From the NCBI RefSeq assembly GCF_003334255.1, contig NZ_QOWU01000151.1: 1,744 nt of DNA; one strand, given 5' to 3'. This document shows, piece by piece, positions 1,444 to 1,744 of this stretch. The notes under the pieces are model-generated. The model saw nothing but the letters and a program-made list of their open reading frames with translations. It had not been told where the DNA came from and did no database searches. Positions within the stretch are counted from its first letter, which is position 1; every line of letters begins with the position of its first letter. Made by a program: the position numbers and the translations under genes. Source of the DNA: Escherichia coli. GTDB lineage: Bacteria > Pseudomonadota > Gammaproteobacteria > Enterobacterales > Enterobacteriaceae.

Positions 1444-1449
1444 GCTTTA

Positions 1450-1455
1450 CCTCCC
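1450..1455 (-). promoter_or_regulatory. Shine-Dalgarno GGGAGG for the DUF4406-like gene
   Basis: Reverse complement of 1450..1455 is GGGAGG, followed by a 6-nt spacer (TAAAGC) and then ATG at 1443..1441. Confidence 0.6.
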
Positions 1456-1471
1456 GTATTGCGTGTTGCTG

Positions 1472-1744
1472 TCAGCACGCGTACTTCTTCCATGTTCGTG
1501 GCGCAGAAGTGCGAACCGTTGATAAGGCGGATGTGATGCATCTCAGGGTGGCGATAACCTCCGGTGCTGATTCCCGGGTTCTTGCGCCAACGCTTCGTGG
1601 TGCCTGGATGGCGTTCATCCGGTAACCCTGATAAATGCGTCTGGTTTCCGGTGTGTCGGAATTGGATATGGTGATGCTGGTCATGCCGCCCGTTTCCTGT
1701 GAAAGGCGGTCAAGCGCTGCCCTCAGACGAACGTGCTCGTCTTC
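1472..1744 (-). CDS. 3' portion of a hypothetical protein gene extending beyond the right edge of the window
   Basis: The only minus-strand frame without stops from 1744 down to TGA at 1474..1472; the other two minus frames are stop-rich. It ends 28 nt upstream of the DUF4406-like start, suggesting an operon. Composition is Ser/Thr/Arg-rich with several rare Arg codons (AGA, AGG, CGA), so coding status is only moderately supported. No family recognised. Confidence 0.45.
   Translation of the reverse strand, partial: EDEHVRLRAALDRLSQETGGMTSITISNSDTPETRRIYQGYRMNAIQAPRSVGARTRESAPEVIATLRCITSALSTVRTSAPRTWKKYAC

Follow-up and report, generated by a model that had tools for sequence, protein, structure and literature searches.

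An odd reading frame at the edge of a prophage segment

At the right-hand end of the window (the whole 1,744-nucleotide stretch of DNA analysed here) a minus-strand reading frame comes in from the edge and stops shortly before a DUF4406-like gene, which raises the question of what this frame encodes, if anything, and why its product looks so unusual. The original prediction described it as the only open minus-strand frame in 1444-1744, ending at 1472, followed after 28 nt by a DUF4406-like gene with a strong Shine-Dalgarno (SD) sequence; it regarded the product as unrecognised, Arg/Thr/Ser-rich and encoded with rare Arg codons, and therefore took the ORF to be either recently acquired or not genuinely coding. 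Translation of all three minus-strand frames confirmed that just one of them reads through uninterrupted from the window edge, covering 90 codons before the TGA at 1474-1472. Another is interrupted by a lone stop near 1712 and then stays open to 1434, with ATG 1541 as its first start codon. The SD sequence (GGGAGG, 1455-1450) and the ATG (1443-1441) of the DUF4406 gene were found where they had been placed, and the co-directional, tightly spaced arrangement of the two genes is genuine.

The composition was also as described, since R, T, A and S make up 13.3%, 12.2%, 11.1% and 10.0% of the 90-residue product, as compared to means of 8.7 (R), 6.9 (T) and 5.6 (S) for 17 early-operon genes of the same prophage. 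The rare codons AGA, AGG, CGA and CGG account for 8 of the 12 Arg codons in the ORF, and because they also account for 17/30 in the whole gene and 101/235 in the prophage early genes (n=17), they are a property of the prophage and not of the ORF.

The window is 100% identical to positions 5347147-5348890 of the E. coli DETEC-S792 chromosome (NZ_CP116067.1), and in the region of this chromosome that we used for the extended analysis (L001) it covers positions 6001-7744. From the annotated surroundings, the element holding the window is a P2-like prophage beside dmsA. Integrase and helix-turn-helix repressor genes lie on one strand, and divergent from both is an early gene block in the order DUF4761, DUF4754, 3'-5' exonuclease, ParE-like ORF, DNA adenine methylase and DUF4406, with replication endonuclease, SSB and portal genes further downstream. 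The organization of a Peduoviridae (P2-like) early operon, i.e. divergent integrase/repressor, co-directional early genes ending in a replication endonuclease (gpA-like) and then late genes (portal), was found both in L001 and in the corresponding locus of strain SCU-172 (L002). Horizontal acquisition, the first of the two options originally offered, thus holds, while the suspicion of non-coding DNA fits the last 22 codons only (1540-1475), as described below.

The frame is the 3' end of a DNA adenine methylase gene

The ORF in the window is the last 90 codons of a 314-aa protein that RefSeq names DNA adenine methylase (WP_016237834.1). The features of the gene itself are as follows, in window coordinates unless otherwise stated.

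L001 7472-8416, minus strand: full methylase gene, 314 aa, running past the window edge
1541-1744, minus strand: native C-terminal part of the Dam-family methyltransferase, codons 225-292 of 314 (2G1P alignment, TIGR00571, dN/dS)
1472-1474, minus strand: TGA stop of the fused methylase ORF

Contrary to the first impression, the product is recognisable even from the 90-aa fragment alone, which matched the NCBIfam model TIGR00571 "dam" (6.4e-5, model positions 202-256) and the DNA methyltransferase family phrog_56 of PHROG (1.3e-8). The full protein matched Pfam PF02086 (D12-class N6-adenine MTase, 1.3e-51, residues 13-270) and phrog_56 (1.1e-84), and its score of 226.9 bits against TIGR00571 lies above the curated cut-off of 114.85, which places it in the Dam family. 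Against E. coli Dam (EcoDam) structures, 2G1P and others, the match was 2.4e-52 with residues 11-290 aligned. Residues 225-290, encoded in the window, aligned to EcoDam 202-267 (e.g. ITISNSDTPETRRIYQGY vs. VLISNHDTMLTREWYQRA), a stretch that takes in ISN(S/H)DT and the last core strand EVIATL/ELLAL. Outside the window, as read from L001, the motifs occur in the alpha-class order, with EPFVGGAS from residue 36 (FVGG, motif I, at 38) and DPPY (motif IV) at 204-207. The catalytic core is intact to residue ~291. The score against NF008152, the equivalog for the E. coli chromosomal Dam, was 218.8 bits and thus below the cut-off of 441; the protein is therefore a Dam family member and not a Dam orthologue.

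It had also been considered that the extended sequence might lack a start codon or ribosome-binding site, or homologues with a conserved reading frame, but this was not borne out. AAGAGG precedes the ATG start codon, the gene overlaps the stop of the upstream ORF by 4 nt (ATGA), there are no internal stops, and the position of the gene, between those for the 3'-5' exonuclease and the replication endonuclease, is conserved. Homologues hold the frame with dN/dS values of about 0.2: in pairwise Nei-Gojobori comparisons of seven alleles, dN/dS over the methylase core was 0.08-0.26 for most pairs (maximum 0.38), and over the 68 native codons in the window 0.07-0.48, mostly 0.2-0.3. The methylase frame is under purifying selection.

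Altogether we consider it very probable that the minus strand of 1472-1744 encodes the C-terminal end of an orphan N6-adenine methyltransferase of the Dam family (D12-class, alpha-type), whose gene belongs to the early (replication) operon of the P2-like (Peduoviridae) prophage next to dmsA, and this estimate applies to the explanation as a whole, including the enzyme action, expression and activity that we propose below.

Conservation of the DNA-contact residues

EcoDam contacts DNA through K9, Y119, N120, L122, R124, P134 and Y138, and R124 discriminates the fourth base pair (PMC4417163). According to the 2G1P alignment, K9, N120, L122, R124, P134 and Y138 are identical in the prophage protein (K12, N135, L137, R139, P149 and Y153, respectively). 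The seventh contact, Y119, is replaced by F134, a conservative change. In T4 Dam the intercalating residue at the equivalent position is also a Phe. The set of contacts agrees with an EcoDam-like, GATC-specific enzyme, and with six of the seven residues identical, GATC is most likely the recognition sequence.

In its overall design the protein resembles EcoDam, as both belong to the PF02086/TIGR00571 fold family and have FxGxG in the N-terminal and DPPY in the C-terminal part, in addition to the six identical contacts. It differs by being prophage-encoded, by an 8-residue insertion near residue 110, by the Y119 to F change, and by its C-terminus, which in this lineage was ancestrally a tail with four cysteines (Cys4) and is now a 22-aa out-of-frame tail.

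A 485-bp deletion has replaced the C-terminus

Alignment to the longer allele of strain MSB1_4I (L003) showed that the window allele is without exactly 485 bp between two copies of CTGAGA, located at 2083-2088 and 1598-1603 in L003 and 485 bp apart. The features at and around the junction are these.

1541-1546, minus strand: deletion junction with the sole remaining CTGAGA copy, a 6-bp microhomology that encodes L291 and R292 (L003 alignment)
1475-1540, minus strand: non-native 22-codon methylase tail, CITSALSTVRTSAPRTWKKYAC, read from a small-ORF remnant one base out of frame
1434-1541, minus strand: what remains of a 72-aa ORF of unknown function (phrog_3459), 35 codons plus stop when read in its native frame

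Residues up to R292 are native, and codons 293-314 correspond to 1540-1475, where the long-form alleles instead read on as QCDACGHHGGGYCPDCG... in place of CITSALSTVRTSAPRTWKKYAC. In L003, the same DNA as in 1475-1540 forms the 3' half of a 219-nt ORF, and read in its native frame the remnant (MHHIRLINGSHFCATNMEEVRVLTATRNTGGKAWQ) matches the 35 C-terminal residues of the 72-aa ORF encoded there without any difference; its stop overlaps the DUF4406 start (ATGGCAGTGA). The deletion was thus microhomology-mediated and removed a 34-residue CxxC...CxxC tail of the methylase, along with a 78-aa ORF and the 5' half of the 72-aa one. As a result, the methylase has a 22-residue out-of-frame tail and its stop now lies 28 nt from the DUF4406 start.

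This also accounts for the composition that first drew attention to the ORF. The 22-residue tail contains 18% T, 14% S and 14% A, and is T/S-rich because these codons are an out-of-frame reading of the 72-aa ORF remnant, while the 68 native residues are simply an Arg-rich part of the Dam core.

Distribution and mosaicism of the alleles

The methylase lineage was carried by 29 out of 5426 complete E. coli genomes. In 25 of these the match to window 1472-1620 was split in two parts ~485-495 bp apart, i.e. the long form, and in the remaining four (DETEC-S792, S19-651, STEC2018-607 and SCU-172) it was contiguous, i.e. the deletion allele. Long-form methylases, such as those of MSB1_4I and SCU-106 (L004), are 324-326 aa and end with ...EVIATLRQCDACGHHGGGYCPDCGPVTGDATYSVMFTPAST. 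They are followed by the 78-aa ORF (phrog_23826), the 72-aa ORF (phrog_3459, 1.2e-34 for the intact ORF) and DUF4406, with a 35-nt gap between the methylase gene and the 78-aa ORF, a 4-nt overlap between the 78-aa and 72-aa ORFs, and a 10-nt overlap between the 72-aa ORF and DUF4406. The MSB1_4I protein (WP_000032110.1) is 96% identical to the window methylase over residues 1-292 and has the same flanking genes, but it is 326 aa, has the tail QCDACGHHGGGYCPDCGPVTGDATYSVMFTPAST and is followed by the two small ORFs before DUF4406, whereas the window allele is without these 485 bp.

The exact 314-aa protein was found on 664 public contigs, as compared to 511 for one long-form sequence, other 314-aa point variants exist in public sequences, and genome annotations from both China and Switzerland contain the identical protein. 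As it recurs across genomes and public contigs, the deletion allele is not an assembly artefact. A natural 297-aa variant (a member of cluster P0004) also diverges from L291 onward (...ATLTPTEQPEQ, ...EVIATLTPTEQPEQ), which suggests that the C-terminal tail is a module that can be exchanged.

In SCU-172, one of the four deletion-allele genomes, the Dam core is nearly identical to that of the long-form MSB1_4I (one synonymous difference), while on the DUF4406 side the sequence agrees with the window. Between DETEC-S792 and the pair S19-651/STEC2018-607, most differences fall in the first 120 nt of the Dam gene and in the final 200 nt of DUF4406. The SCU-172 pattern is explained equally well by two independent deletions and by one deletion with later recombination within the 62 nt beside the junction. 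From Dam to DUF4406, the alleles of L001, L002, L003, L008 and L009 are mosaic, which points to frequent recombination between the prophages that carry them.

The Dam proteins of the Peduoviridae phages SW3 (Salmonella) and 3LV2017 (Klebsiella) are 46-49% identical to the window methylase and are encoded in the same early-operon slot, cox/exonuclease to replication endonuclease gene. The SW3 Dam shares a CxxC-x8-CxxC tail with the long-form E. coli alleles, but its gene neighbours a cytosine methyltransferase gene where the window lineage has DUF4406, and in the window allele the deletion has taken away this tail as well as two small ORFs downstream of the gene. Among the sequenced phages in the collection searched, none had a Dam at least 60% identical to the window methylase, so in that collection the lineage is known only from prophages. 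A paper on the P2-like phage R18C made no mention of any methylase.

The DUF4406 neighbour is frameshifted

The DUF4406 gene downstream of the junction was originally read as starting with a strong SD sequence, which is correct for the ancestral gene.

1444-1471, minus strand: 28-nt spacer from the methylase stop to the ancestral DUF4406 start, with the SD sequence GGGAGG (1455-1450) 6 nt before the ATG
1094-1443, minus strand: DUF4406 gene (nucleoside 2-deoxyribosyltransferase-like), frameshifted in the window by a 1-nt deletion at ~1398-1399

As compared to SCU-172, S19-651 and STEC2018-607 one C is missing (GACCAC to GACAC), and the frame that starts at the SD-preceded ATG 1443 is not intact in the window as it stops after 25 codons. 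RefSeq annotates only 1094-1408, 104 aa from the internal ATG 1408. In the other three deletion-allele genomes DUF4406 is intact (116 aa), and this form matched phrog_355 (2.6e-38). The frameshift either results from an assembly error in DETEC-S792 or is a real pseudogenization, as would fit a prophage at the onset of decay. Our literature search on DUF4406 gave incidental mentions only.

From their arrangement, it is plausible that the methylase and DUF4406 genes would be transcribed as one operon, and no terminator-like site was found between them on the minus strand. A regulatory hairpin or terminator in this interval was considered and rejected, as the hairpin at 1460-1481 was flagged on the plus strand only, and the predicted mRNA-strand fold of 71 nt at the spacer was no better than that of shuffled sequences (z = -1.0; 27 of 200 shuffles as good).

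Other readings of the locus

Its Arg/Thr/Ser-rich composition, its rare Arg codons and a last stretch of 22 codons that is not evolved coding sequence in the methylase frame might make the ORF look like a chance open frame that is not genuinely coding. We give this reading practically no credence, since codons 225-292 already rule it out by their strong Dam homology, in the fragment alone as well as in the full protein, and since dN/dS is ~0.2 in the methylase frame, a start codon and ribosome-binding site are present, and rare Arg codons are used throughout the prophage. It is also highly improbable that the protein serves as the modification component of a defence system, restriction-modification or other, instead of being an orphan phage Dam. 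PADLOC models for Type II MTases do match the protein (5.5e-72), and there are weak matches to PD-Lambda-5_B (1.6e-13), but the best PADLOC match of the full protein is the orphan methyltransferase model (4.6e-76). Further, the gene does not stand beside a partner as in a Type II system, with no endonuclease or defence protein annotated within +/-6 kb, the six neighbouring ORFs tested (including the plus-strand ORF, DUF4406, the ParE-like ORF and the two small ORFs) had no PADLOC matches, and Peduoviridae phages have the gene at the same position of their early replication operon.

Two other readings accept the gene but differ in what its product does. An identity of only ~40-50% to characterised Dams, the replacement of Y119 by F and the score below the NF008152 cut-off would agree with a Dam-family enzyme that recognises a sequence other than GATC, which we find improbable given that the other six base- and phosphate-contact residues of EcoDam, R124 included, are identical. 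Somewhat more weight, while still unlikely, is given to the allele being a dead remnant in decaying prophage DNA, inactivated or destabilised by loss of the Cys4 tail and gain of the out-of-frame tail. The lost tail is a conserved feature that E. coli prophages share with Salmonella phage SW3, the deletion also hit two small ORFs, and in the window strain DUF4406 is frameshifted too. Against this, the EcoDam-homologous region is intact (to residue 290 of 292 native residues) and without internal stops, the exact protein occurs on the 664 contigs and in complete genomes from both China and Switzerland, divergence from L291 onward is also seen in one more natural allele, and the Klebsiella phage homologues do without the Cys motif.

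Our preferred reading is thus that of an orphan Dam-family methylase, which would transfer a methyl group from AdoMet to the N6 of adenine in GATC in phage (and host) DNA. Following induction or infection, the early promoter of the prophage would drive its expression along with that of its neighbours, and the enzyme could keep the rapidly replicating phage DNA fully methylated or protected. Full methylation by phage orphan Dams can protect from GATC-directed restriction and compensate for limiting host Dam. The deletion allele is presumably still active, since only an accessory tail was lost.

Other features of the window

At positions below 1444 the window contains several further features. 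A C4 antisense RNA (RF01695) at 329-416 (minus strand; 80.4 bits, E 1e-15) and an IsrK Hfq-binding RNA (RF01394) at 452-526 (minus strand; 67.2 bits, E 9e-14) both scored above the gathering score, and a c4-a1b1 target match at 487-539 was sub-threshold in Rfam. On the minus strand, the IsrK match is immediately preceded by a promoter-like site (562 to 533), and its 3' end is marked by a hairpin with a T-run (472 to 457). By the C4/IsrK matches and flanking signals, 283-650, which looks non-coding, holds a P1/Gifsy-type antisense-RNA module upstream of a 73-aa ORF (51-272, minus strand; phrog_3688, unknown function). This ORF lies directly downstream of the C4 RNA, and since related genomes have "derepression protein" as the annotation of its counterparts, it may be an antirepressor under C4 control. 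In SCU-172 the 73-aa ORF is duplicated (L002 5222-5443 and 6051-6272, same protein accession).

A plus-strand ORF at 656-1120, alternatively annotated from 473, encodes 154 aa from ATG 656 (phrog_6315, unknown function) with hydrophobic stretches, had no PADLOC match, and is embedded on the opposite strand in the early operon. It converges on DUF4406, overlapping the DUF4406 3' end by 27 nt, and has a terminator-like hairpin of its own at 1100-1115; its RefSeq starts differ between genomes. As both this ORF and DUF4406 are absent in strain Bongo (L007), they behave as a variable module. Inside the ORF there is a perfect 13-nt inverted repeat, 961-973/1064-1076 (CATGATTGCGCGC/GCGCGCAATCATG), with arms 90 nt apart. 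The window has no direct repeats and two inverted pairs, both located outside 1444-1744. A non-coding RNA in 1444-1744 was considered and rejected, as Rfam (E-value mode) gave a sub-threshold match to snoRNA sR32 only (14.4 bits, E 0.69).

The Cys-rich tail and its loss

The gene is already annotated in RefSeq, and phage-borne orphan Dams are a well-known class, so the methylase is in itself an ordinary feature; the sole new detail is the deletion-fusion history of its C-terminus. This history corrects the picture of the locus in two respects: the odd composition at the end of the ORF traces back to a microhomology deletion and an out-of-frame remnant, and the strong SD and ATG of DUF4406 open a broken frame in the window strain.

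The long-form Dam ends with a conserved CxxC-x8/9-CxxC tail (QCDACGHHGGGYCPDCGP...; L003 1978-2082, L004 1987-2091 and L011 ~3870-3969), which is common to the Dam of Salmonella phage SW3 despite an overall identity of 47%, and is degenerate or absent in the Klebsiella phage 3LV2017 homologue. The tail is possibly a zinc-binding module. As it is conserved as far as SW3, its loss may matter for the function of the methylase. Going further, the tail could be a regulatory or targeting zinc module, possibly together with the two small ORFs, and the deletion allele a separation-of-function variant instead of a neutral truncation; we regard this as a long shot, and a function gained by the 22-residue out-of-frame tail itself as a minor related reading. 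If the former is true, a widespread 485-bp deletion allele would have an altered processivity, targeting or timing of methylation. A possible role of the conserved Cys-rich tail in P2-like Dam enzymes could be explored by comparison with these tail-less natural alleles.
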